46,083 nt of DNA from assembly GCA_001781625.1 (NCBI GenBank), contig MFLS01000002.1:19957-66039 (forward strand), in the 5' to 3' direction. A program made the position numbers and the translations under genes. The notes beneath the pieces were generated by a model. The model did no database searches. It had not been told where the DNA came from and saw only the letters and a list, made by a program, of their open reading frames with translations. This DNA is from Candidatus Kaiserbacteria bacterium RIFCSPHIGHO2_12_FULL_56_13. Its GTDB lineage: Bacteria; Patescibacteriota; Minisyncoccia; Phycocordibacterales; Phycocordibacteraceae. Shown one piece after another: positions 1 through 9,561 of the stretch. Position 1 is the first letter of the stretch. Every line of letters starts with the position of its first letter.

Positions 1-10
1 GACGAAATCG
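1..10 (+). ncRNA. Hammerhead ribozyme, 3' fragment cut off by the window start
   Basis: GACGAAAUCGGAAGUUCUUU (1-20) aligns with GAUGAAACAGAAGUUCUUUGAG (310-331) and GACGAAACAGAAACUCUUUGAG (2368-2389). That covers the stem II 3' strand, GAAA, stem III and the shared downstream motif. Confidence 0.4.
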
Positions 11-83
11 GAAGTTCTTTAATAACATTGAGTAGCGTCGAGTTAGATCCTCTCCAACAGAGTCCCGTAGCGTATGGTCCTGG

Positions 84-105
84 GCGAGCTGAGAAATCTG
101 CTCGC
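84..105 (+). repeat. Hairpin H0 of the GGCG...CGCC family
   Basis: GCGAGC (84-89) pairs with GCUCGC (100-105). The loop contains GAGAAAUC, as in H1 and H4, and the hairpin is preceded by GG. Confidence 0.4.
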
Positions 106-165
106 TACTCTTTTGCCACTGTTCAGCACCGTGGCGTTGAGCAAAGTTAAACAGGGTGTGGTAAT

Positions 166-186
166 GGGCGGAGAGAAATCTTCGCC
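166..186 (+). repeat. Hairpin H1 of the GGCG...CGCC family
   Basis: GGCGGAGA (167-174), GAAA loop, UCUUCGCC (179-186). 8 bp including one G-U. Confidence 0.5.
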
Positions 187-240
187 AAAATATCTAGTCT
201 GGTTTTGTACGCCCAACAGGCGCACTGCCTACTAGTGTAT

Positions 241-268
241 GGGGCGGGAGAACCAAGATTCTCCCGCC
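241..268 (+). repeat. Hairpin H2, immediately 5' of hammerhead 1
   Basis: GGCGGGAGAA (243-252) pairs with UUCUCCCGCC (259-268), 10 bp. It is followed by AACUGUC exactly as for H3. Confidence 0.6.
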
Positions 269-270
269 AA

Positions 271-319
271 CTGTCCCAGGATGTGTTTCCTGGCTGACGA
301 GTCCGAAAGGATGAAACAG
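271..319 (+). ncRNA. Type III hammerhead ribozyme, copy 1
   Basis: Stem III is CUGU (271-274) with ACAG (316-319). The cleavage triplet GUC ends at C275. Stem I hairpin is CCAGGA-UGUGUU-UCCUGG (276-293). Core is CUGACGA (294-300). Stem II is GUCC-GAAA-GGAU (301-312). GAAA lies at 313-316. Confidence 0.85.
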
Positions 320-365
320 AAGTTCTTTGAGTACGAACCACCGAACCATCAGAGGGAAAATCCAG

Positions 366-2162
366 ATGAAAAATCTCGATCTCATGGGGTCATTCCCGTA
401 CGATCGTCACCGCGTTATGCGAGACGGCCAGAAGATCGCCTTTGAAGAACTCAGGGGCGTCGAAGGTAAGGCAATCATCGAATCACCAGTCGGCACGGGT
501 AAAACCGCTGTCGGCATCACCTATCTTTCGGCGCTCGAAAAGCGTTTGAAGGCAGAACGGAATTTCGGCGGTCACCTGTTCTACATCGCGCCCAACAAGG
601 CGCTTGTCGAACAGGTGCATACGCTCTATCCGAAGGTGAATGTCGTCTACGGCCGCAACGAGCACCCGTGCTTCTACTACAAGGACGAGGACCTCAAGGC
701 GGACGAAATTCCCTGCTCAATGCTCACGGACTGCCCGCACAGGGTGGACCAGGAGACTGGGAAGACGCATACGGCCGGGGCGAAGCCTTGCGCGTACCTC
801 AAACAGAAGTACGAAGCAAAGAAGAATCCCGGCATCATCGTCTGCACCAACGCCTTCTTTCTCTACTCGGTTCTGTTCTCGAAAGAGTTTACGCCGGTAG
901 GGGTCGTCATCGACGAGGCGCATCGCATGGCACAGTCCATCCGCTCGGTTCTCCAGACGGAGATCACCGACTGGAAGGTTCAACGAGCGGTGGATGTGCT
1001 CGACGAGGTGAATCCTCGCCAATGCGCGAAGCTCTCGGCGTTCCTCGCGAGCATGAAGCGCACGGTAAAGCACTACGCGATGGGCAAGGAGACTCTGCTC
1101 GAAGAAGAGCAAATCCAGCGTCTCTACGAAACACTCTCTGCGGTTAATACTGACGCGCTCGAAGGCGAAGTCCGCCGGGCGATCGCGAAGGGTAAACTCG
1201 ACAAGAAGGCTGACCGTGAGGTCATCAAGCAAGTCGAGGACATCGCGCGGAGTGTGCGCCGCTTCAGGTACGCGCTCTCGTTCACGATGGCGACCAAGGA
1301 GCGACCGCCCCTTTCATTTATCTTCGCGTACGGCAAAACGGAGATGGGCGAGCACGACAAGGTGCAGTACAAAATCGTGGTCAAGGACTACTATGTGGTT
1401 CCCTTGATCAAGAAGATGCTGCCGGAGCACACGCTCGCCTACTCGGCGACGATATCGGACCCCGAACTCTTCGAGTTCGAGACCGGTATCAAGGGAACCT
1501 TCGCGTCAATCCCCTCCGGATTCCCGGTGGAGAACGCGCGAATCTATATGCCTACCGATACGGCAAATCTTGCGACCGCGAAATGCGGGAAGCAGGATAA
1601 GACGAGAAGCTTGCGGCTCATCGCCAAGACCGCGAAGAAATTCGCGCGAAAGGGGATGCGTTCGTTGATCATCGTCGTGTCAAACGCCGAGCGGCAGAAG
1701 TTCCTGATGCTCGCCGGAGAAGAAGGTCTTGACGTTCTCTCCTACGGAGAGGGAGTCACCGCTCGCGAATGCGCTTTTCGCTTCCAAAAGGGCGAGGGCG
1801 AATGCTTGGTCGGCACCATGGCTAACTTCGGCGAGGGTATCGACCTCCCGAAACAGATGGCACCGGTCATCTTCTACCTTCGGCCCGGCTATCCGCGCCC
1901 CAACGACCCACAAACGGTCTTTGAGGAGCGGCGCTTCCGAAATCGGCGGTGGGCGCTCTGGAATTGGCGCGTGATGGTGGAGTTGCTCCAAGTGCGGGGA
2001 CGGAACATTCGTTCCGAAACCGACCTCGGGGTCACCTTCCTCATCTCACAGCAGTTCCGGCGCTTCGCGTTTGGAGCGCTTCCCTCTTGGCTCGAGCCCG
2101 CGTATCGCGGCAACTCGACTCTCGACGAATGCGTGAAGGACGCGATGAAGTTGTTGTCGTAG
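366..2162 (+). CDS. DinG/XPD (Rad3-related) superfamily 2 DNA helicase with a 4-Cys Fe-S cluster insert
   Basis: Walker A is ESPVGTGKTAVG and the DEAH box is VVIDEAHRM. Four Cys lie between them (HPCFYY...IPCSMLTDCPH...KPCAYL). Motif V is FGEGIDLP and motif VI is QVRGRNIRSETDLG. ATG 366 is preceded by AGAGGG. The TTG at 327 in the ORF track lies only 8 nt downstream of the ribozyme's 3' end (319), with no visible SD. Confidence 0.85.
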   Translation: MKNLDLMGSFPYDRHRVMRDGQKIAFEELRGVEGKAIIESPVGTGKTAVGITYLSALEKRLKAERNFGGHLFYIAPNKALVEQVHTLYPKVNVVYGRNEHPCFYYKDEDLKADEIPCSMLTDCPHRVDQETGKTHTAGAKPCAYLKQKYEAKKNPGIIVCTNAFFLYSVLFSKEFTPVGVVIDEAHRMAQSIRSVLQTEITDWKVQRAVDVLDEVNPRQCAKLSAFLASMKRTVKHYAMGKETLLEEEQIQRLYETLSAVNTDALEGEVRRAIAKGKLDKKADREVIKQVEDIARSVRRFRYALSFTMATKERPPLSFIFAYGKTEMGEHDKVQYKIVVKDYYVVPLIKKMLPEHTLAYSATISDPELFEFETGIKGTFASIPSGFPVENARIYMPTDTANLATAKCGKQDKTRSLRLIAKTAKKFARKGMRSLIIVVSNAERQKFLMLAGEEGLDVLSYGEGVTARECAFRFQKGEGECLVGTMANFGEGIDLPKQMAPVIFYLRPGYPRPNDPQTVFEERRFRNRRWALWNWRVMVELLQVRGRNIRSETDLGVTFLISQQFRRFAFGALPSWLEPAYRGNSTLDECVKDAMKLLS

Positions 2163-2209
2163 AGCATTGCAGAGTTATGTCTTGTCCACTGAGATGCTCA
2201 AAGGTACTG

Positions 2210-2241
2210 GATGAGAAGGAGTAGAAATATTCCTTCTCATC
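2210..2241 (+). other. Strong stem-loop downstream of the helicase stop
   Basis: GAUGAGAAGGA (2210-2220) pairs perfectly with UCCUUCUCAUC (2231-2241), 11 bp. The loop is GUAGAAAUAU. No clean U-tract follows (GCUUUGC). Confidence 0.4.
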
Positions 2242-2298
2242 GCTTTGCACTGTCCTGCCGCGTCGTTCAGTTGGGTAAATCATTGTTCTTTATTGTTC

Positions 2299-2326
2299 GG
2301 GGCGAGGAAACTTCGGTTTCCTCGCC
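2299..2326 (+). repeat. Hairpin H3, immediately 5' of hammerhead 2
   Basis: GGCGAGGAAAC (2301-2311), UUCG loop, GUUUCCUCGCC (2316-2326), 11 bp. It is followed by AACUGUC. Confidence 0.6.
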
Positions 2327-2328
2327 AA

Positions 2329-2377
2329 CTGTCGGAGGATGTGTATCTTCCCTGATGAGTCCGAAAGGACGAAACAG
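2329..2377 (+). ncRNA. Type III hammerhead ribozyme, copy 2 (canonical core)
   Basis: Stem III is CUGU (2329-2332) with ACAG (2374-2377). GUC cleavage is after C2333. Stem I is GGAGGAU-GUGU-AUCUUCC (2334-2351). Core is CUGAUGA (2352-2358). Stem II is GUCC-GAAA-GGAC (2359-2370). GAAA lies at 2371-2374. Confidence 0.9.
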
Positions 2378-2402
2378 AAACTCTTTGAGGAGACACCATG
2401 AA

Positions 2403-2546
2403 ATGAAATCAAGCAACAAGACGAAGACGCGAGTCAAAGTCACCCTCGTCAGCACTTCGCCAATGATTCAGAACGCCTTCAGGGAGATCCTGTACTTCAC
2501 GTGCGGGACGGAGAGAAATCTCCGTCGTACATCCTGTCGGGTTTAG
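2403..2546 (+). CDS. Possible 47-aa basic peptide downstream of hammerhead 2
   Basis: GAGGAG lies 5 nt before ATG 2398, which opens only ATG-AAA-TGA. The overlapping ATG 2403 opens MKSSNKTKTRVKVTLV.... The 3' end runs through hairpin H4. No recognisable family. Confidence 0.2.
   Translation: MKSSNKTKTRVKVTLVSTSPMIQNAFREILYFTCGTERNLRRTSCRV
2501..2531 (+). repeat. Hairpin H4 of the family
   Basis: GACGGAGA (2508-2515), GAAA loop, UCUCCGUC (2520-2527). Extended by GUGC/GUAC with a GG bulge. Confidence 0.5.
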
Positions 2547-2587
2547 CTCACTTGCTTCAAGTTGCGTCAGGTCCCCTCAGGTGAACT
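2534..2587 (+). other. Probable decayed hammerhead remnant after H4
   Basis: CUGUC|GGG follows H4 just as the cleavage site follows H2 and H3. GCGUCAG-GUCC-CCUC-AGGU-GAAC (2564-2585) aligns with CUGAUGA-GUCC-GAAA-GGAC-GAAAC, but the catalytic core is mutated. Confidence 0.3.
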
Positions 2588-2589
2588 TA

Positions 2590-2615
2590 GGGGCGGAGAA
2601 CTACAGTTTTCCGCC
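2590..2615 (+). repeat. Hairpin H5 of the family
   Basis: GGCGGAGAAC (2592-2601), UACA loop, GUUUUCCGCC (2606-2615). 10 bp with one G-U. Confidence 0.55.
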
Positions 2616-2684
2616 ATTCACCCTGCTTGGTACCGTTGGGTCGTGTGTCGCAGGGTTTGCTGTTCGTTCTCAAATCTTCAGTTC

Positions 2685-2714
2685 GGGGCGGAGAAGGACT
2701 TGGTCTTTCCTGCC
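2685..2714 (+). repeat. Hairpin H6 of the family
   Basis: GGGGCGGAGAAGGAC...GUCUUUCCUGCC. About 12 bp if one A is bulged; two G-U pairs. Confidence 0.45.
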
Positions 2715-2789
2715 ACATTTTTGAGTGCAGACAGGTGGCGTGTCGCATTCTTCGTTATTCTGCAGCAAAGTCGAACTTCAGTCGAGTGC

Positions 2790-2817
2790 GGGGCGGAGAG
2801 ACTTTGGTCTCTCCGCC
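2790..2817 (+). repeat. Hairpin H7 of the family
   Basis: GGCGGAGAGAC (2792-2802), UUUG loop, GUCUCUCCGCC (2807-2817). Perfect 11 bp. Confidence 0.6.
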
Positions 2818-2878
2818 AAACATCATTGTGCAATATCGTCAGGCTGACTCTAGTTTTCTACAGTCTTATAACGTATGG

Positions 2879-2916
2879 AGCGGGTTCCCCTAAAAAGGAA
2901 CCCGCTATTTTATTTT
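2879..2916. terminator. Bidirectional intrinsic terminator (end of hairpin array / rarA)
   Basis: AGCGGGUUCC (2879-2888) pairs with GGAACCCGCU (2897-2906), followed by AUUUUAUUUU. It overlaps the rarA stop. Confidence 0.6.
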
Positions 2917-4091
2917 CCGCCAGAGGCGGATCCGCCTTCGGCGGACAAATACTTCTTTTTCTTTAGCTTTTCCGGTAATAGCGACTCCGTATCGCCATAC
3001 ATTTCGTATCCTTTTCCATAATCCAAATCCTTCATGAATTTCGTTTCAGGGTTGCGGAGTTTTTTGGGGACGGGGAGATTACCGAAGGCCTGCACATCGG
3101 CTTGCGCTGACCGCAACGCGTCATACGCGCTACGATTTTTCTTACACTGCGCGAGGTACGCAACGCCGTGAGCGAGCGTAATGGCGCATTCAGGGTAACC
3201 GATCGTCTCGCAGGCGCGAAATACGGCGTTTGCGACCACAAGCGCAGTTGGTTGTGCAAGGCCGATGTCTTCTGAAGCGAAAACGACCATGCGGCGCGCG
3301 ATAAAAAGAGGGTCCTCCCCTGCTTCGACCATGCGTGCGAGGTAGTAGAGGGCGGCATCAGGCTGCGAGGCACGCATGCTTTTAATAAATGCACTGATGG
3401 TGTCATAATGCTCCTCGCCTTTTTTGTCGTAGCGCAGGTGCGGCGACTCAAGCGCTTTGTTCAAGGTTTCGACATCTACTTTTCCATACAAACTCTGCGC
3501 ACCCTCAAGCATTCCGAGTGCTTTACGTGCGTCGCCATTTGCGTACCCAAGGAGCCAATCAAAAGTTTTTGCATCTATTTTAATTTTTGTGCTCTTTACG
3601 ATTGCTTTCAGCGCTTCTTCAGAGAGTGGCTCGAGCACGAATACTCGGCAGCGCGAAAGCAAAGCAGGTATCACCTCGAAACTCGGATTTTCGGTCGTAG
3701 CGCCGATCAGGGTGAGAACACCGTTTTCGACATACGGCAAGAGAAAATCCTGCTGTGCTTTATTGAAACGATGGATCTCGTCGAGAAAAAGGAGTTTCGG
3801 TTTCTCAAACATCGCGATTTCATTGCGCCCCTTCTCACTCCCAACAATTTTCTTGATGTCCTCTTTGCCCGCAGAGACCGCCGAGAGCTCGTGAAGTTCG
3901 GCATCGAGTGCGCGCGCATAAATGCGCGCGATAGTCGTCTTGCCAGAGCCCGGCGGACCCCAAAGGATGAATGAGAAGAGGTGCTTTTTCTCTATCGCAA
4001 CGCGAAGAGGTTTACCCGCCCCTACCAAATGCTCTTGCCCCACGACTTCGTCGAGGGTTTGCGGCCTCAAGCGCGCAGCCAACGGCTCCAT
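2910..4091 (-). CDS. rarA: Replication-associated recombination protein A (AAA+ ATPase RarA/MgsA)
   Basis: N-terminus is PLAARLRPQTLDEVVGQEHLVG. Walker A is WGPPGSGKTTIAR and Walker B is LLFLDEIHRFNK. The C-terminal MgsA domain includes YDTISAFIKSMRASQPDAALYYLARM. Confidence 0.9.
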   Translation of the reverse strand: MEPLAARLRPQTLDEVVGQEHLVGAGKPLRVAIEKKHLFSFILWGPPGSGKTTIARIYARALDAELHELSAVSAGKEDIKKIVGSEKGRNEIAMFEKPKLLFLDEIHRFNKAQQDFLLPYVENGVLTLIGATTENPSFEVIPALLSRCRVFVLEPLSEEALKAIVKSTKIKIDAKTFDWLLGYANGDARKALGMLEGAQSLYGKVDVETLNKALESPHLRYDKKGEEHYDTISAFIKSMRASQPDAALYYLARMVEAGEDPLFIARRMVVFASEDIGLAQPTALVVANAVFRACETIGYPECAITLAHGVAYLAQCKKNRSAYDALRSAQADVQAFGNLPVPKKLRNPETKFMKDLDYGKGYEMYGDTESLLPEKLKKKKYLSAEGGSASGGK

Positions 4092-4092
4092 G

Positions 4093-4163
4093 TGCGGGAT
4101 GGGAGAATCGAACTCCCGCTCTCAGTTTGGAAAACTGACGTTCTACCATTAAACTAATCCCGC
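4093..4163 (-). tRNA. tRNA-Gly (UCC)
   Basis: The reverse complement folds as a cloverleaf with acceptor GCGGGAU/AUCCCGC. Anticodon stem is UCAGU/ACUGA with loop UUUCCAA, giving UCC. T arm is GGGAG-UUCGAUU-CUCCC. No encoded CCA. Confidence 0.8.
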
Positions 4164-4202
4164 TTACTCGCGAGGATACCATTTTTGAGGTAGCGTAGGA
4201 GC

Positions 4203-5315
4203 ATGCCGCTGTATTTGTGGGCGACAATAGTTTTCGCCATCGTCATCGCGCTTAGCGCAAGCGTGTATAACGCGCCGAGGGTGGCCACTGCCCCGCCTAC
4301 CCAAAACACGATTGAGACAGTAACGGATGAAGAAGTTGTTTGGGGTGACGTGCCGACAGCGAGCGAGCCAGTTGTCGAAGCATCGCCGTTTGTCGAGCCC
4401 GCACAACCTGCGGCTACGACCCCGATCTCTCAACCGCCTGCATCACAGCCGGTCGCGGTTGCCGTACAACCCACACAGAGCGAATTTGAAAGTGCGGCCG
4501 AAGCACTGCGCGCTGCCCTCGTCAACATATTTTGCATCTCCGGTCGTCGTGATATCATCTCGATCTCTGGCTCGGGCGTCATCGTTGATCCGCGCGGCAT
4601 CATCATCACGAATGCGCATATCGCACAATACTTTTTGCTCGCCGGCGATCCCGCGCTTGAGGTCTCGTGCATGATACGTGCCGGGAGCCCCGCAAAAGAT
4701 CTCTATCGCGGGAGCCTCATGTTCCTCCCGCCCTCGTGGGTCGCACAAAACGCCGACATTCTGACTAAAGACGACCCGACTGGGAATGGCGAATACGACT
4801 TCGCTTTTATCGCCATCACGGGGAGTGCAACCGCTTCATCCTTGCCGAGCATCTTCGCCCATGTGCCGCTTGGCGAGGGCGATGCCCACGCTCTCGAGCC
4901 CGTCATCATCGGCGCCTATGCGGCACAATTTCTTTCATCGAGCCAGTTGCAGTCGGCGCTCTTCCCCACCCTTGTGTATGGTTCGATAAAAGAGGTTTTT
5001 ACTTTTGTCGCGACGACGATCGATGTCATCACGCTTGGCGGCTCGGCGGCGGCACAAGAGGGCTCTTCAGGCGGCGGAGTGGCACGCACCGACGGCACCT
5101 TAGGCGGCCTTATCACCACCTCGACGATTGAGGGCGATACCTCTGCGCGCACCTTAGGCGGAATCACGGCGTTATACATTCGCCGCGCCTATGAAGCCGA
5201 GACCGGTACAACACTTACAACGCTCATGTCGAAGTCGCCAGTTGAAGCGGCTGCCAGCTTCGCGCCGCAGATACCCGCGCTCCGCGCGCTCCTCACTGCC
5301 GCTCTTTCGCAATAA
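4203..5315 (+). CDS. Membrane-anchored trypsin-like (S1 family) serine protease
   Basis: N-terminal TM segment is LYLWATIVFAIVIALSA. GSGVIVDPRGIIITNAHIAQY provides the catalytic His context, EYDFAFIAI the Asp, and EGSSGGGVA the Ser. Confidence 0.7.
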   Translation: MPLYLWATIVFAIVIALSASVYNAPRVATAPPTQNTIETVTDEEVVWGDVPTASEPVVEASPFVEPAQPAATTPISQPPASQPVAVAVQPTQSEFESAAEALRAALVNIFCISGRRDIISISGSGVIVDPRGIIITNAHIAQYFLLAGDPALEVSCMIRAGSPAKDLYRGSLMFLPPSWVAQNADILTKDDPTGNGEYDFAFIAITGSATASSLPSIFAHVPLGEGDAHALEPVIIGAYAAQFLSSSQLQSALFPTLVYGSIKEVFTFVATTIDVITLGGSAAAQEGSSGGGVARTDGTLGGLITTSTIEGDTSARTLGGITALYIRRAYEAETGTTLTTLMSKSPVEAAASFAPQIPALRALLTAALSQ

Positions 5316-5318
5316 CGT

Positions 5319-5389
5319 TCGGGCCGCCGAGAGTCGAACTCGGTCTACCTGCTCCCAAAGCAGGCGTACTACCATCATACGCCGGCCCG
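5319..5389 (-). tRNA. tRNA-Pro (UGG)
   Basis: Acceptor is CGGGCCG/CGGCCCG. Anticodon stem is CCUGC/GCAGG with loop UUUGGGA. T arm is CCGAG-UUCGACU-CUCGG. Confidence 0.8.
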
Positions 5390-5399
5390 CTTTTGCATC

Positions 5400-5792
5400 C
5401 TACACGATTTGCGGCAAGTAGCGGACACGAGCGCGACCGTCGTGAGCTCGAAGCCACACCAGCGCTCCGTCGACCTGCCACTCTCCCTCCCAGTTCTTTT
5501 GCATGACATACCACTCCCCCGTTCGTGCAACCTTGCGCACTTTCGCTTCGTGGAGATTTAAAGAAGGATCATATTCGTCTGTCGGTTCTGCCGTTGGGAA
5601 TTCGCGACAGACAACCGTCTTAACCTCGACAAAGTGAAGAGTGTTACCCTCGTGGGCCACAAGGTCGATCTCTCCTGTTTTGCGGGTGACATTGCGGTCG
5701 ATAATCTTTATGCCGTGTCGGCGAAGGTATTCGGCCGCCACCCGCTCTCCCAGAGTCCCAATCTCCCTCCTACTCTTACCAAAGAGGTTCAT
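5400..5792 (-). CDS. YraN family (UPF0102) endonuclease-like protein
   Basis: GERVAAEYLRRHGIKIIDRN...GEIDLVAHEGNTLHFVEVKT is the typical YraN signature. Confidence 0.85.
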   Translation of the reverse strand: MNLFGKSRREIGTLGERVAAEYLRRHGIKIIDRNVTRKTGEIDLVAHEGNTLHFVEVKTVVCREFPTAEPTDEYDPSLNLHEAKVRKVARTGEWYVMQKNWEGEWQVDGALVWLRAHDGRARVRYLPQIV

Positions 5793-5920
5793 GTCCTTTA
5801 ATTATAGCCCTTATTTGCTTGTTTTTCTTTAAAGTCAAGATATTTGGGGGTATGTCCTTTATCCCCATGTCCCCAACTTTATCCCCTACTTCGCTCAAGC
5901 TACGTAAGGTAAGCACTTTG

Positions 5921-5991
5921 TGCGGATAGCGAGAATCGAACTCGCGTCTCGTCCTTGGCAAGGACGCATTCTACCACTAAACCATATCCGC
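5921..5991 (-). tRNA. tRNA-Gly (GCC)
   Basis: Acceptor is GCGGAUA/UAUCCGC. Anticodon stem is CGUCC/GGACG with loop UUGCCAA. T arm is GCGAG-UUCGAUU-CUCGC. Confidence 0.85.
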
Positions 5992-6019
5992 TTTTCGCGA
6001 GGCACTATACCATATCTTG

Positions 6020-6091
6020 CGCCTCGGCCAGGACTCGAACCCAGAATTCGACGTCCGAAGCGTCGCGTGATATCCATTTCACCACCGAGGC
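6020..6091 (-). tRNA. tRNA-Arg (UCG)
   Basis: Acceptor is GCCUCGG/CCGAGGC. Anticodon stem is CGACG/CGUCG with loop CUUCGGA. The T loop is UUCGAGU and the T stem has two G-U pairs. Confidence 0.75.
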
Positions 6092-6131
6092 ATTACGCCG
6101 TAAAGCGTAACAAACATGCTACCATCACGCC

Positions 6132-7595
6132 ATGAGCCATGCTGTGCCAAAAGAGGTTGCGGGCGTCTCCTCTGCCCTTCGCAACGCTGGTTTTGAGGCC
6201 TATTTGGTTGGTGGATGCGTCCGCGATCTCCTCCTTAGCAGAACGCCGAAGGACTGGGATATCACCACGAATGCCTCCCCGGAGCAAATCCAGGTCGTGT
6301 TTCCTGACTCTTTTTACGAAAATGAATATGGCACCGTGGGTGTAAAAACTGGCGCCCTCGATCCGGCTCTCGCCATTGTTGAAGTAACTCCCTATCGTAA
6401 AGAGTCGGGCTACTCTGACAAGCGCCGGCCTGACTCGGTTGAGTTTGGCGCCTCGCTCGAAGAGGATCTTGCAAGACGCGACTTCACCGTGAACGCCATC
6501 GCCCTCGGTGGCTCTCAAGGACAACCTGTTGACCCGTATAAAGGACAAAAGGACATAAAGGACAAAGTCATACGTGCCGTAGGCAAGCCAGAAGAGCGCT
6601 TTAACGAAGACGCACTCCGTATTATGCGGGCCGTGCGGCTTGTCGCCGAGCTTGATTTTGCCCTCGACACAGACACGGCCGCGGCAATGAAGTTACACGC
6701 GAAACATCTAGGAGCTATTTCACGTGAAAGAGTCAGGGACGAGCTTGTCAGGATCCTCAATTCAGATTCCCCCATGACAGCCCTAACTCTTGCACAGCAG
6801 CTTGGGCTTTTGGAGTTTATCGCCAAGGATCTCTGCCGGGGTATAGGCGTGGAGCAAAATCAGGCTCATAAATACGATGTTTTTGAACACTTGATGCGTA
6901 CCATGCAGCACGCTGCAGACAAGAGTTACAACTTCGAGACCCGCCTTGCTGGGCTCTTTCATGATGTCTCGAAGCCAGAGACGCGGCGTTGGTCTGACGA
7001 AAAGAATGATTGGACCTTTCATGGCCATGATGTTGTTGGTTCACGTGTAACAAAAAAGGCTCTAGAAGATTTGAAGTTTTCACGGAATACCATAGATAAA
7101 GTCGTGAAACTTGTGAGATGGCACATGTTCTTCTCTGACCCTGAAATAGTGACCACTTCAGCTGTGCGGAGGGTCATTACTAATGTCGGACAAGAGAACA
7201 TTGAGGATTTGCTGAACTTGCGGATTTGTGACCGCATTGGCACTGGGCGGCCAAAGGAGCAACCCTTTCGCTTTCGTAAATACAAGGCCATGGTAGAGCA
7301 GGCCCTGCGAGACCCCGTTTCAGTTGGGATGCTTAAGACTGACGGCAACCGGCTCATGGAGAAGTTTCGCGTGGAACCTGGGCCAAAGATAGGATGGGTT
7401 TTACATGCTCTTCTTGAAGAGGTGCTTGATAACCCAAACCTTAATACTGAGGAGTATATGGATAAAAGAGCGGCTGAAATGCTCGCCATGAAGGAGACAG
7501 AACTTAAGAAGCTGGGCCAATCGGGCAAAGAAAAGCGTGAAAAGAGGGAAGAGGAGGAGCTGAAAAAGATAATGGAGAAGCACCACGTTTGCTAG
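6132..7595 (+). CDS. cca: CCA-adding tRNA nucleotidyltransferase with HD domain
   Basis: Polymerase-beta motif is AYLVGGCVRDLLL...DWDI, followed by RDFTVNA. The HD domain includes LFHDVSKP. Confidence 0.85.
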   Translation: MSHAVPKEVAGVSSALRNAGFEAYLVGGCVRDLLLSRTPKDWDITTNASPEQIQVVFPDSFYENEYGTVGVKTGALDPALAIVEVTPYRKESGYSDKRRPDSVEFGASLEEDLARRDFTVNAIALGGSQGQPVDPYKGQKDIKDKVIRAVGKPEERFNEDALRIMRAVRLVAELDFALDTDTAAAMKLHAKHLGAISRERVRDELVRILNSDSPMTALTLAQQLGLLEFIAKDLCRGIGVEQNQAHKYDVFEHLMRTMQHAADKSYNFETRLAGLFHDVSKPETRRWSDEKNDWTFHGHDVVGSRVTKKALEDLKFSRNTIDKVVKLVRWHMFFSDPEIVTTSAVRRVITNVGQENIEDLLNLRICDRIGTGRPKEQPFRFRKYKAMVEQALRDPVSVGMLKTDGNRLMEKFRVEPGPKIGWVLHALLEEVLDNPNLNTEEYMDKRAAEMLAMKETELKKLGQSGKEKREKREEEELKKIMEKHHVC

Positions 7596-7798
7596 AAACA
7601 AACAAGCCGCCCGTGAGGGTCGGCAACGAAAAAGGAGCGAGGGCGTTAAATGATAGTGCTACCGAGGAGAAATAGGGCAGCTTGTGACTTGTTTGCGCTC
7701 TCAAAGGGGAACGAAGCCCAAAAGATCCAATCGCGGATACGCCGCGGAGCCGTAGGCAAGGACCACCTTAACCGAGCGCGCTGATGCGAAAGACCACC

Positions 7799-7819
7799 AA
7801 AAGGACAATCCGTCCTTTA
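7799..7819. terminator. Hairpin in the convergent cca/xth gap
   Basis: AAAGGAC (7800-7806) pairs with GUCCUUU (7812-7818). UUUU follows on the minus strand. Confidence 0.35.
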
Positions 7820-7847
7820 GTTAGGATACTTGTGTAAAGGACATTGT

Positions 7848-7876
7848 AAAGGACACCCTGTGGATAAGTGTCCTTT
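7848..7876 (-). terminator. Probable xth terminator overlapping its stop codon
   Basis: AAAGGACAC (7848-7856) pairs with GUGUCCUUU (7868-7876), 9 bp. The minus strand continues with a U-rich stretch. Confidence 0.5.
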
Positions 7877-8639
7877 AGGACAGATTTATAGAGACTGGGC
7901 AATGGTCAGAGCCGTAGATGTCCGCATGTATTTCTGCCCCCCGGACACGTTTCATAAGCTCTTGCGCGGCAAAAAAGTAGTCGAAGCGCCACCCCACATT
8001 CCTATCTCTTGCCCGAGTTACTAAATCCCAATACGTGTAAGCACCCGAACGGCTTGGGTTAAAGTGTCGGTACACATCCGAATAACCAGCCGCGATGACT
8101 TCGTCTATCCAAGCTCGCTCTTCTGGCAAAAAGCCCGTATTTTCTTCATTTTCTTTAGGTCTTGCAAGATCAATTTCTTCATGAGCGACATTTAAATCAC
8201 CACAAAAAATAACTGGTTTTTGTTTGCGGAGCCGCTCGGCAAGTGCGAGAAAAGCGTCGAAAAAGCGTAGCTTATAGTCGAGTCGTTCGGGGCCACGACC
8301 AGCGTTGGGGAAGTAGGCGTTCAAAAGCCAAAAGTCCTCGAACTCACCCCCGATCGTTCGACCCTCCTGATCGAACTCGGGTATTCCCATATTTATTATC
8401 GAAAGCGGTTCGATTCTTGAATAAAGAGCGACACCACTGTAACCCTTGCGCACTTGGCTTGAGGAAAAGAACGAAGAAAAACCCTTGGGATCGCGAAGTT
8501 CGTCCGGTACTTGATCGGGCGAGGCCTTCGTTTCTTGGAGGCAAAAGATGTCGGGCTTCGCGCCCTTCAAAAAGCTCTCCCAATAGCCGTTTTTCGCGAG
8601 CGACCGGAGACCGTTCACATTCCACGATACAAGACGCAT
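7875..8639 (-). CDS. xth: Exodeoxyribonuclease III
   Basis: MRLVSWNVNGLRS, FCLQETK, GDLNVAH and SDHCPV motifs. Confidence 0.9.
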   Translation of the reverse strand: MRLVSWNVNGLRSLAKNGYWESFLKGAKPDIFCLQETKASPDQVPDELRDPKGFSSFFSSSQVRKGYSGVALYSRIEPLSIINMGIPEFDQEGRTIGGEFEDFWLLNAYFPNAGRGPERLDYKLRFFDAFLALAERLRKQKPVIFCGDLNVAHEEIDLARPKENEENTGFLPEERAWIDEVIAAGYSDVYRHFNPSRSGAYTYWDLVTRARDRNVGWRFDYFFAAQELMKRVRGAEIHADIYGSDHCPVSINLS

Positions 8640-8661: not shown

Positions 8662-9561
8662 TTAACGGCTGCGGGAGTGGTACTTCTTGTGAATTTCGTG
8701 CAGGTGCGAGTCGGTAACGTGCGTGTAGATTTGCGTCGTGTTGATGGAGGCGTGTCCGAGGAGCTGCTGGACCGAGCGGATGTCGGCGCCGTTACTGAGA
8801 AGATCAGTTGCAAATGAGTGCCGCAGGACGTGCGGCGTTACTTTTTTCGTAATACCGGCCTTGATCGCGTAGTACTTGATGACGCGCTCGATCGAGCGGG
8901 ACGTGAGCCGCTCGCCGCGCTCACGCCCCTTCGCGATATTGACGAATAAGGCCTCGCCCATGTCCTTACGTGCTTGCACATACGCTTTCACCGCCTCTTT
9001 GGCAGAAGGGGAGAGAAAGACGACGCGCACCTTCTCGCCCTTGCCACGCACTGAAAATTCGTCCTTCGATAAGTCCAAATCAGCATCAAGAGAACAGAGT
9101 TCGGAGACGCGGAGCCCTGTGGAGAAGAGGAGCTCGAGGATGGCCCTGTCGCGGAGCGCTTTTTCGTCAGTGTCGTCTGCGGCCCTCATGAGGCGCGAGA
9201 GTTCTTGGGTCGTAATGAGGTCGAGCGAACGCTCGGGGAGCTTTGCGAGTTCAATTTTCTCGGGCGAGATGCACTTGATGCCCCGCTTTTGTAGATACTT
9301 GAGGAAGGCGCGTATGGCGATGAGGTAGTAGTTCTGCGTCCTTCGCTTCATCGAGCCCTCCACCCCATCCTGCCTATTGAGCCAGAGGCGAAAGTCGCGC
9401 ACAATATCCTCCGTAATATCACTCGGCTCCCTGATCTTCATTTGCTCGAAAAAGCGCGTGAGGTAATGGTCGTAATTCTCAACCGTTTTCACCGCGCGGC
9501 CGCGCTCTATCTCGATGTACTCCAAGAACTGCCGCTTTGCCTGCTCCGCGTCCATACGCAC
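8662..9561 (-). CDS. Tyrosine site-specific recombinase, XerC/XerD type
   Basis: C-terminal catalytic region is HVLRHSFATDLLSNGADIRSVQQLLGHASINTTQIYTHV. An N-terminal SAM-like domain is present. Confidence 0.9.
   Translation of the reverse strand: MRMDAEQAKRQFLEYIEIERGRAVKTVENYDHYLTRFFEQMKIREPSDITEDIVRDFRLWLNRQDGVEGSMKRRTQNYYLIAIRAFLKYLQKRGIKCISPEKIELAKLPERSLDLITTQELSRLMRAADDTDEKALRDRAILELLFSTGLRVSELCSLDADLDLSKDEFSVRGKGEKVRVVFLSPSAKEAVKAYVQARKDMGEALFVNIAKGRERGERLTSRSIERVIKYYAIKAGITKKVTPHVLRHSFATDLLSNGADIRSVQQLLGHASINTTQIYTHVTDSHLHEIHKKYHSRSR

Follow-up and report, generated by a model that had tools for sequence, protein, structure and literature searches.

The stretch of DNA analysed here (hereafter, the window) comprises 46,083 nt of a contig of Candidatus Kaiserbacteria (MFLS01000002.1). 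Its first 2,916 nt carry, all on the + strand, a gene for a 598-aa helicase (366-2162), a type III hammerhead ribozyme on either side of that gene, a 47-aa open reading frame (ORF) and a series of short repeated units that are closed by GC-rich hairpins and run up to an intrinsic terminator. Several metagenome contigs encode a helicase with the identical amino-acid sequence; one of them (L001) is identical to the window over a 12,162-nt overlap and reaches 5.7 kb further upstream, where it encodes a 239-aa protein and a conserved 119-aa protein (gene 2). An original prediction, made from the window sequence, held that the two ribozymes would release a discrete 2058-nt helicase RNA with ligatable ends, which would be either trimmed or circularised. 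We favor, with a probability of about 75%, the hypothesis that positions 1-2916 are the downstream half of a chromosomal Candidatus Kaiserbacteria locus of the VIPR (Viral Interference Programmable Repeat) type, in which hammerheads cut a long transcript into guide RNAs and mRNAs. VIPR, an RNA-guided defence system described only in 2026, consists of a small ancestral RAMP protein (Vipr), an accessory gene (vap) and guide RNAs called vrRNAs, according to the accessible text of the preprint that introduced it (bioRxiv 10.64898/2026.04.26.720920).

Both hammerheads were found on the + strand at the sites that had been claimed for them (268-322 and 2326-2380), as judged by the match to the catalytic core, the Rfam model RF00008 and the covariation described below. 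The upstream copy (HHR-d, 269-319), in the 5' untranslated region (UTR) of the helicase gene, has the order AACUGUC^CCAGGAUGUGUUUCCUGG-CUGACGA-GUCCGAAAGGAU-GAAA-CAG, that is, AACUGUC at 269-275, stem I at 276-293, CUGACGA at 294-300, stem II at 301-312, GAAA at 313-316 and CAG at 317-319, with the predicted cut (^) between C275 and C276. The downstream copy (HHR-e, 2327-2377), which we regard as the 5'-UTR ribozyme of the next cistron, has the order AACUGUC^GGAGGAUGUGUAUCUUCC-CUGAUGA-GUCCGAAAGGAC-GAAA-CAG, with AACUGUC at 2327-2333, stem I at 2334-2351, CUGAUGA at 2352-2358, stem II at 2359-2370, GAAA at 2371-2374, CAG at 2375-2377 and the predicted cut between C2333 and G2334. Loops close stems I and II in both copies, stem III being open. 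The catalytic core is present in each (CUGACGA/GAAA and CUGAUGA/GAAA, respectively, both with GUC before the cut), and RF00008 (Hammerhead_3) aligns both copies end to end with 35.8 bits for HHR-d and 40.2 bits for HHR-e (E-values of 2.6e-5 and 1.5e-6 in a 3.2-kb search, and of 3.7e-4 and 2.2e-5 over the whole window). These alignments show mispairs at the outer end of stem III, five inserted nucleotides in loop I and a 4-nt deletion in loop II. R1, a covariance model built from related copies (see below), scores the same two sites at 93.6 bits over 238-334 and 98.9 bits over 2296-2392. The loose core pattern is not significant by itself in the window (two matches against 0.67 expected, and at least two matches in 15 of 100 shuffles), and the search of 1-3200 for other RNA or ribozyme families returned weak, spurious matches only (the L20 leader at the terminator, and snoRNAs). 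Self-cleavage at 275/276 and 2333/2334 is very likely.

L001 carries five hammerheads within ~4 kb, all on the + strand and each directly 3' of a tail hairpin of the form GGGGCGG...CCGCC. The window edge cuts through the third of these, so to speak, leaving at 1-11 (+ strand) only the 3' end of the ribozyme, i.e., the 3' strand of stem II (GAC), GAAA and the 3' strand of stem III (UCGG); the full copy, at L001 5621-5719 (R1 87.9 bits), has CCGAU/AUCGG as stem III and would be cut after AUC. This stem III is a natural compensatory variant of that of HHR-d and HHR-e. Every hammerhead of the locus and of its close relatives is followed on the 3' side by the motif AAGTTCTTTRA, which occurs in the window at 12-23, 320-331 and 2378-2389 (the last copy being AAACTCTTTGA), while unit junctions that lack a ribozyme begin with a looser U/C-rich stretch; the motif could serve the following unit as a 5' handle, or act as a leader.

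Support for the ribozyme fold comes from the comparison of related loci. A MAFFT alignment of ten hairpin-plus-hammerhead modules from four loci showed 94.5% of the cells at paired positions to be paired and compensatory changes in 20 of the 29 base pairs (6/7 in stem I, 3/4 in stem II, 3/7 in stem III and 8/11 in the tail hairpin), with CUGU/ACAG, CCGAU/AUCGG and CUGAU/AUCAG as stem III variants. The model R1, built from these ten modules, recovered a copy (in L010) that had not been used in its construction and, when run against 80 metagenome loci encoding helicase homologues, gave 48 matches, of which 39 were distinct. The model-fitted alignment of the distinct copies was 97.1% paired, with 24 of 27 pairs showing compensatory changes (4/5 in stem III and 11/11 in the tail hairpin), compared to 34-49% when the partners were slid by 1-3 columns; over both alignments, such controls ranged between 34 and 50%. 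The core is intact in about 33 of the 39 distinct copies by inspection, H17 being C or A, and loop I, (G)AUGUG, and loop II, GAAA, are invariant while the stems vary, which is consistent with a tertiary contact between the two loops of the kind that allows fast cleavage at physiological Mg2+. All helices show compensatory change around an unchanged core, in a comparison of loci with helicase identities of only 50-70%. Further, the ribozyme and the tail hairpin co-vary as one module of ~97 nt, joined by a fixed 1-3-nt linker in most of the detected copies, with a few weaker hammerheads lacking the tail hairpin (e.g., L040 5047-5130). Separately, insertions of 20-30 nt of GC-rich sequence in stem II, with the core intact, were seen at L018 3585-3713, L025 111-243 and 2373-2503, and L015 2545-2664.

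Hairpins of the GGGGCGG...CCGCC type without a ribozyme are far more numerous than those with one, are spaced 75-105 nt apart and continue up to the terminator at 2879-2916 (stem-loop 2879-2906 followed by a T-run, by terminator scan). They close units of about 80-100 nt whose bodies consist of xGYnn pentamers, with 5-9 strict pentamers per unit; the tract at 2622-2656, for instance, reads tGCtt gGTac cGTtg gGTcg tGTgt cGCag gGTtt. Autocorrelation of GY dinucleotides in the window tracts exceeded that of shuffled sequences at lags of 5, 10 and 15 nt (z of 10.9, 10.7 and 7.7, respectively), and the periodicity was absent from the helicase ORF by the same test. When composition was anchored on the tails, pentamer position 2 was occupied by G in 48% of cases but by A in only 2%, and position 3 by T in 57%. 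The global Fourier test for period 5 gave a weak signal because the units are mutually out of phase; the anchored composition and the autocorrelation were decisive. Because these pentamer tracts lie between the hairpins, we take the hairpins to be vrRNA tails, including the one that the original prediction had called H3; all of them are instances of a repeated element, with 65-76% identity in the 34-nt family D2 and 80-93% only in the 15-nt 5' core (family D3). By comparison, the vrRNAs described in the accessible preprint text are ~100 nt long and consist of 9-16 pentamers, GGY/NN or variants thereof (NNNGG, YNNNG, NNNNG), followed by a structured 3' tail (bioRxiv 10.64898/2026.04.26.720920).

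Nine or ten vrRNA-like units, all on the + strand, were counted in the window. Three precede the helicase: U1 (12-106), a unit of xGYnn pentamers that has the leader AAGTTCTTTAAT and its tail hairpin at 82-106; U2 (107-184), with its tail hairpin at 164-184 (GGGCGGAGA-GAAA-TCTTCGCC; repeat family D16); and U3 (185-275), in which the tail hairpin (241-268) is followed by AACUGUC and a predicted 2',3'-cyclic phosphate end after C275. U4a (2163-2241), which begins immediately behind the helicase stop codon, contains five consecutive xGYnn pentamers and is closed by a hairpin at 2210-2241 (repeat family I15), and U4 (2242-2333) ends in the hairpin 2299-2326 and AACUGUC, with its predicted 3' end after C2333. 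Beyond HHR-e follow U5 (2528-2615; tail hairpin 2590-2615, family D3), U6 (2616-2714; seven consecutive xGYnn pentamers, tail hairpin 2685-2714), U7 (2715-2817; tail hairpin 2790-2817, families D2 and D3, with a partial R1 match at 2787-2833 that covers the hairpin only) and the last unit, U8 (2818-2916), in which the terminator hairpin, with xGYnn pentamers before it, apparently also serves as the guide tail; with its T-run, it ends the transcription unit. Among 53 related loci, most of the spacers between the vipr homologue and the helicase gene show the same 5-nt GY periodicity. Very long ORF-free spacers with extreme periodicity occur at L012 6705-8963 and in the 3.2-kb vipr-helicase spacer of L043 (z of 14.8 and 32.8); neither matched the hammerhead model, and both have the appearance of giant guide arrays whose processing does not involve this hammerhead.

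The protein that ties these units to VIPR is encoded about 2 kb upstream of the window (L001 3366-4085; NCBI OGG68249.1, annotated as 'hypothetical', Candidatus Kaiserbacteria). The protein (A0A1F6E3I0) is 239 aa long, and its C-terminal part contains the glycine-rich loop GIGDHRKKGSFGRF. The profile built from 19 homologues matched a single PDB sequence, 36pp, the 'SUSP1 Vipr protein' (E 1.3e-5), and the alignment matches the thumb Arg138 (...YRP...) of SUSP1 Vipr and sets its G-loop GVGDWRPRFGRF against GLGDHRKKGSFGRF of the 239-aa protein, the shared motifs being RP and GxGD[W/H]R...FGRF; in SUSP1 Vipr, the thumb and G-loop residues touch the guide RNA (bioRxiv 10.64898/2026.04.26.720927). 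Consistent with this assignment, Foldseek matched the AlphaFold model (pLDDT 75) best to Cas7/Csm3 subunits from CRISPR complexes of types III and VII, with a probability of 1.0 and E 3e-8. The locus therefore combines a small RAMP with a G-loop and a thumb that is homologous to SUSP1 Vipr, tandem pentamers (5-9 strict ones per unit, above the minimum of four in the VIPR definition, with xGYnn corresponding to the YNNNG variant of the accessible preprint text), a conserved structured 3' tail closing each unit and a minimal vipr plus vap arrangement with long non-coding flanks, without a CRISPR array or other cas genes. At the level of sequence, the ribozyme folds, pentamer repeats, tail hairpins, RAMP homology and gene order can all be regarded as shown. 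Pattern-based scans, which are of limited sensitivity, found no member of this Vipr clade in viral contigs and only three distant relatives in GTDB species genomes.

The helicase, for its part, corresponds to an accessory (vap-type) gene, with a ribosome-binding site (RBS; GAGGG) at 352-356. It is a DinG/XPD-like superfamily 2 protein that matches the Pfam domains DEAD and Helicase_C_2, PADLOC typeIV_DinG (PDLC01439, E 1.5e-34) and PHROG 2488 (2e-37). Across 32 homologues, three of its four conserved cysteines (C102, C123 and C142) are invariant and the fourth (C117) nearly so, at the position of the XPD/DinG iron-sulfur domain. It fails the curated models for Csf4 and DinG (15 bits with TIGR03117, cas_csf4, against a cut-off of 400), and the other neighbouring proteins gave no PADLOC match to Cas proteins. 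A homologue of vipr precedes the helicase gene in the same orientation in 49 of the 53 distinct loci with more than 2.5 kb of upstream sequence, and the cassette of vipr, a gene of ~119 aa and a helicase gene of ~595 aa recurs in other Kaiserbacteria-like contigs. The position of gene 2 (L001 4471-4830; also present in L033, L051 and L059) varies: close relatives have it between vipr and the helicase, three more distant loci 3' of the helicase. Neither gene 2 nor the two genes upstream of vipr gave an informative match to Pfam, PHROG, PADLOC or NCBIfam. Behind HHR-e, the 47-aa ORF (2403-2546, + strand), which is also called in L003/L004, has an RBS (GAGGAG) and an ATG and overlaps a tail-like hairpin at 2505-2526. 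Its residues 11-29 are identical at 9 of 19 positions to the first strand of Vipr P0001 (BLASTP, E of 5e-6 for the single pairwise comparison), and the ORF is probably what remains of a second vipr gene after duplication of the cassette. With an RBS and a Vipr-like ORF directly 3' of it, HHR-e is best read as the leader ribozyme of that decayed second cassette.

The placement of the ribozymes relative to genes and guide units is conserved. A hammerhead precedes the helicase start codon by 10-130 nt in 18 of 18 distinct related loci, and every gene 2 of the clade for which a hammerhead was detected likewise carries it in its 5' UTR, with the distance to the RBS being conserved. Because it precedes every helicase and gene 2, we consider a ribozyme-set mRNA 5' end to be part of the conserved design, and the insulator logic of the original prediction (a defined, structured 5' end) is well supported by it. 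In contrast, a hammerhead 3' of the helicase was found in only 6 of the 18 distinct loci and was absent within 2-4 kb in the remaining 12, so that the notion of a functional pair bounding the helicase RNA is not supported; in the window, the downstream copy belongs to the next cistron. Among the 45 hammerheads in 19 loci, 29 have an RBS and an ORF within 160 nt downstream and the other 16 are followed by more vrRNA units. Hammerheads are inserted exactly at some of the junctions between a tail and the next unit, and one is found at each border between a vrRNA array and an ORF.

These observations suggest the following model. Hammerhead cleavage leaves a 2',3'-cyclic phosphate and a 5'-OH, and a type III ribozyme stays almost wholly on the 3' product. 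We infer that one long + strand transcript would run from a promoter-like site upstream of vipr, ~2.3 kb before the window, to the terminator at 2879-2916. It would carry vipr, the genes for the 119-aa protein and the DinG/XPD-like helicase, and over 20 vrRNAs, each about 80-100 nt long. Scans for sigma-70 promoters found none in window 1-3000 or in L001 2000-8700, and the sites resembling TTGACA...TGCTAA that were picked out by eye, 5' of vipr at L001 ~3268 and 5' of gene 2 at ~4443, are candidates at most. Given the chemistry above, each cut would provide the upstream vrRNA with an exact 3' end, in which the tail hairpin is followed by AACUGUC and a 2',3'-cyclic phosphate, and would let the downstream mRNA begin with a 5'-OH and a compact folded ribozyme, so that guides would be uncoupled from messages and each cistron would receive a uniform leader. 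Such ends may stabilise the RNAs, and the guides may target DNA; in the published system, as far as the accessible preprint text goes, the Vipr-vrRNA filament reads DNA through the NN dinucleotides with a 1-nt skip (bioRxiv 10.64898/2026.04.26.720920).

Under this model, the 2058-nt RNA is not a specially excised molecule. It is a single cistron unit within a long precursor and comprises the ribozyme, the 5' UTR, the ORF and the two vrRNAs that trail it. The sequence agrees with the original prediction in that 276-2333 spans 2058 nt, contains the whole helicase ORF and ends in the hairpin 2299-2326 plus AACTGTC, while the RNA also carries the two guide-like units at 2163-2241 and 2242-2333, which that prediction had not recognised. 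Of its two alternatives, trimming is supported, whereas circularisation is not, and the identity of the stem III halves (CUGU/ACAG), true as it is of both copies, is a trait of the family that is common to four of the five hammerheads of the locus and provides no pairing specificity.

Several points weigh against the VIPR hypothesis and should be considered. Both window hammerheads score below the curated Rfam gathering cut-off of 48.5 bits, which is an operational and not a structural criterion, and the 10.1-11.1 pair of HHR-d is a G.U. Nearest-neighbour folding recovers the tail hairpin and two of the ribozyme stems (I and II); the 4-bp stem III does not form, and the CUG of the core pairs with CAG instead. 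We attribute this to the energy model, which has its limits for a 4-bp stem beside a tertiary core, and, because of the covariation, do not count it against the fold. The L001 copy upstream of gene 2 (4278-4332) carries a U4C change in the core (CCGAUGA), and hammerheads of this kind may be slow or dead ribozymes; a second, independent CCGAUGA copy occurs at L051 3707-3792. Cleavage, transcript extent and vrRNA ends at this locus are predictions, and in vivo cleavage is reported, as far as the accessible text of the preprint goes, solely for related VIPR types (bioRxiv 10.64898/2026.04.26.720920). The majority of vrRNA junctions have no ribozyme and, therefore, hammerheads cannot be the general route of vrRNA maturation; the remaining junctions must be processed by a different nuclease or by Vipr itself. 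In viral contigs, two exact NN-x patterns of 10 repeats had no match, whereas the preprint's workflow, as given in its accessible part, accepts matches of at least 80% (shorter NN-x seeds would produce too many chance matches). Finally, the vipr gene lies outside the window, with the link relying on the identical contig L001, the placing of the locus in type V, among VIPR types I-VII, is only a guess, and the reference preprint (10.64898/2026.04.26.720920) is not peer reviewed.

Alternatively, the hammerheads might mainly serve the mRNAs, as RiboJ-like insulators or stabilisers that set the expression of the helicase and gene 2, with each cistron obtaining a uniform structured 5'-OH leader and a protective 3' hairpin, its expression being independent of the upstream array and the vrRNA 3' end being incidental. 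This hypothesis, which differs from the VIPR processing model only in emphasis, is in line with the 5'-UTR hammerhead at every helicase and gene 2 in the 18 loci, with the lack of ribozymes at most vrRNA-vrRNA junctions and with the geometry of synthetic RiboJ, where the ribozyme body stays on the downstream RNA; however, the 16 hammerheads that precede further vrRNA units and not an ORF, and the abutment of most ribozymes on a tail hairpin with which they co-vary, make it unlikely as the principal explanation. Considerably less probable still, in our view, is that in a minority of loci, those with a hammerhead on either side of the helicase as in the window, the excised helicase RNA is re-ligated, by hammerhead reversal or an RtcB-type ligase, to a circular or concatenated mRNA/guide carrier with a rebuilt hammerhead, in the manner of retrozymes or viroid-like RNAs. 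The sequence contains nothing that would preclude such joining, the end chemistry would suit it according to established hammerhead chemistry, AACUGUC at 269-275 is repeated at 2327-2333 with ACAG following both cores, so that the junction would rebuild HHR-d exactly, and two-sided flanking does occur in six of the related loci. Yet the retrozyme-type arrangement is not conserved, given that the downstream ribozyme is missing in 12 of the 18 loci where the upstream one is always kept; HHR-e has an RBS and an ORF remnant of its own behind it; the shared CUGU/ACAG does not specify which ends would pair; a 4-bp stem III is weak for joining ends 2 kb apart; no RtcB was found in a scan of 19 ORFs, among them all those of at least 350 aa; the circle would contain two guide-RNA units; and Perreault et al. 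2011 (PMC3088659), who sought circular or spliced products of clustered bacterial hammerheads, detected none. We give marginally less credence yet to the idea that the sequences resemble hammerheads by chance, or are defunct remains of a mobile or repeated element, and that the helicase mRNA is made and degraded in the ordinary way. The scores below the gathering cut-off, the insignificance of the bare core pattern, the U4C copy and the G.U pair would all fit with it, but compensatory change in every helix around a fixed core, at such divergence of the helicases, the conserved placement relative to ORFs and the hammerhead arrays confirmed by small-RNA sequencing in related VIPR types, as reported in the accessible text of bioRxiv 10.64898/2026.04.26.720920, speak strongly against it. 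Two further candidates were rejected. A phage origin was dismissed because the window is a chromosome of a candidate phyla radiation (CPR) bacterium with NusA, EF-G/EF-Tu, PGK, RecJ and ComEC (blastn of 1-8000 against phage records matched only tRNA, RarA-type ATPase and CCA-enzyme genes), and a ribozyme-processed CRISPR-like (type IV-like) array was ruled out by the divergent hairpins, the pentamer-periodic 'spacers' and the lack of other cas genes, with neither TRF nor a repeat search finding a CRISPR-type array.

We favor VIPR as the system to which the locus belongs, and it is useful to consider how it compares with what is known. With the published VIPR systems, of which the preprint counts 667 representative ones, it shares a single small RAMP with G-loop and thumb, a vap gene (a helicase here), the lack of a CRISPR array, a cellular, defence-type context and guides of ~80-100 nt made of pentamers and a structured 3' tail. 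Hammerheads between adjacent units are also shared: as far as the accessible preprint text goes, hammerhead-interspersed vrRNA arrays, confirmed by small-RNA sequencing, are reported for types I and V; vap genes that encode helicases or nucleases are reported for types III-V (bioRxiv 10.64898/2026.04.26.720920). It differs from them in its repeat (xGY-NN, the YNNNG variant, and not the GGY-NN of the accessible text), in its tail, which is a simple GC-rich hairpin where that of SUSP1 is a pseudoknot, in the extra 119-aa gene, in its CPR host and in having ribozymes also at every array-to-ORF border, where the accessible part of the preprint tells of them between adjacent vrRNA segments. The bacterial hammerheads of Perreault et al. 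2011 (PMC3088659) similarly include several same-strand copies around single genes or short blocks, for which a cutting of mRNAs to gene length was proposed, and one archaeal-virus copy just 5' of a helicase ORF; they are, however, mostly of type II or I, in prophage operons, with no guide arrays or RAMP noted, as opposed to the fusion of ribozyme and guide tail hairpin into one co-varying module seen here. Type IV-A CRISPR-Cas also combines a guide-coating Cas7-like RAMP with a DinG-family helicase (CasDinG/Csf4) as accessory effector, but the Kaiserbacteria locus has no identical repeats or spacers, its hairpins diverging with compensatory changes where a type IV-A array consists of near-identical repeats, and it has one RAMP gene only, without the multi-subunit Csf effector (Csf1, Csf2, Csf3 and Csf5, acting with Csf4/CasDinG).

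Engineered RNAs and circular hammerhead RNAs offer further parallels. As in RiboJ and in ribozyme-gRNA-ribozyme cassettes, upstream RNA would be removed, a structured 5'-OH leader left and guides released with defined ends, although the Kaiserbacteria locus is natural, chromosomal and conserved and only the 3' end of the guide is ribozyme-defined. With retrozymes and viroid-like RNAs it shares two type III hammerheads of the same polarity and ligatable ends that would rebuild a ribozyme, but it is a DNA-encoded operon with RBS-preceded ORFs, without long terminal repeats, primer-binding site or polypurine tract (LTR/PBS/PPT) and without rolling-circle logic.

With respect to the genomic setting, four minus-strand tRNA genes (Gly-TCC, Pro-TGG, Gly-GCC and Arg-TCG) and a gene for an XerC/D-type tyrosine recombinase lie a few kb downstream of the locus (window 4092-6091 and 8662-9561). 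In other Kaiserbacteria-like contigs the cassette is found elsewhere, between a peptidase gene and alaS, and because of this different chromosomal neighbourhood it appears to be mobile or variably placed. RNase Y is encoded near the locus (L001 504-2033), as is a CCA-adding enzyme with an HD domain (window 6132-7595), both of them housekeeping proteins. HD domains of the CCA-adding enzyme class can hydrolyse 2',3'-cyclic phosphates; nonetheless, the proximity of both genes is probably a coincidence.

In conclusion, the ribozyme-flanked helicase gene becomes, under the hypothesis that we favor, a natural case of ribozyme-assisted processing in a VIPR system. The locus opens no new category: hammerhead-interspersed vrRNA arrays and helicase accessory genes are already known from the accessible text of the preprint (bioRxiv 10.64898/2026.04.26.720920), and the surprising part, the circular RNA, is unlikely, even though a re-ligated helicase RNA would, if real, represent a long-lived bacterial circular mRNA/guide carrier. 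What goes beyond that accessible text is that, in this clade, each cistron after a guide array opens with a hammerhead, a natural counterpart of RiboJ and ribozyme-gRNA designs, that the tail hairpin and the ribozyme evolve as one module and that the accessory helicase is an iron-sulfur-type DinG/XPD protein. The type IV CRISPR DinG being the nearest defence-database model of the helicase could also bear on the proposed link between VIPR and CRISPR. Finally, R1 combined with the test for 5-nt GY periodicity provides a simple means to recognise such loci in CPR genomes, where their genes are labelled hypothetical.

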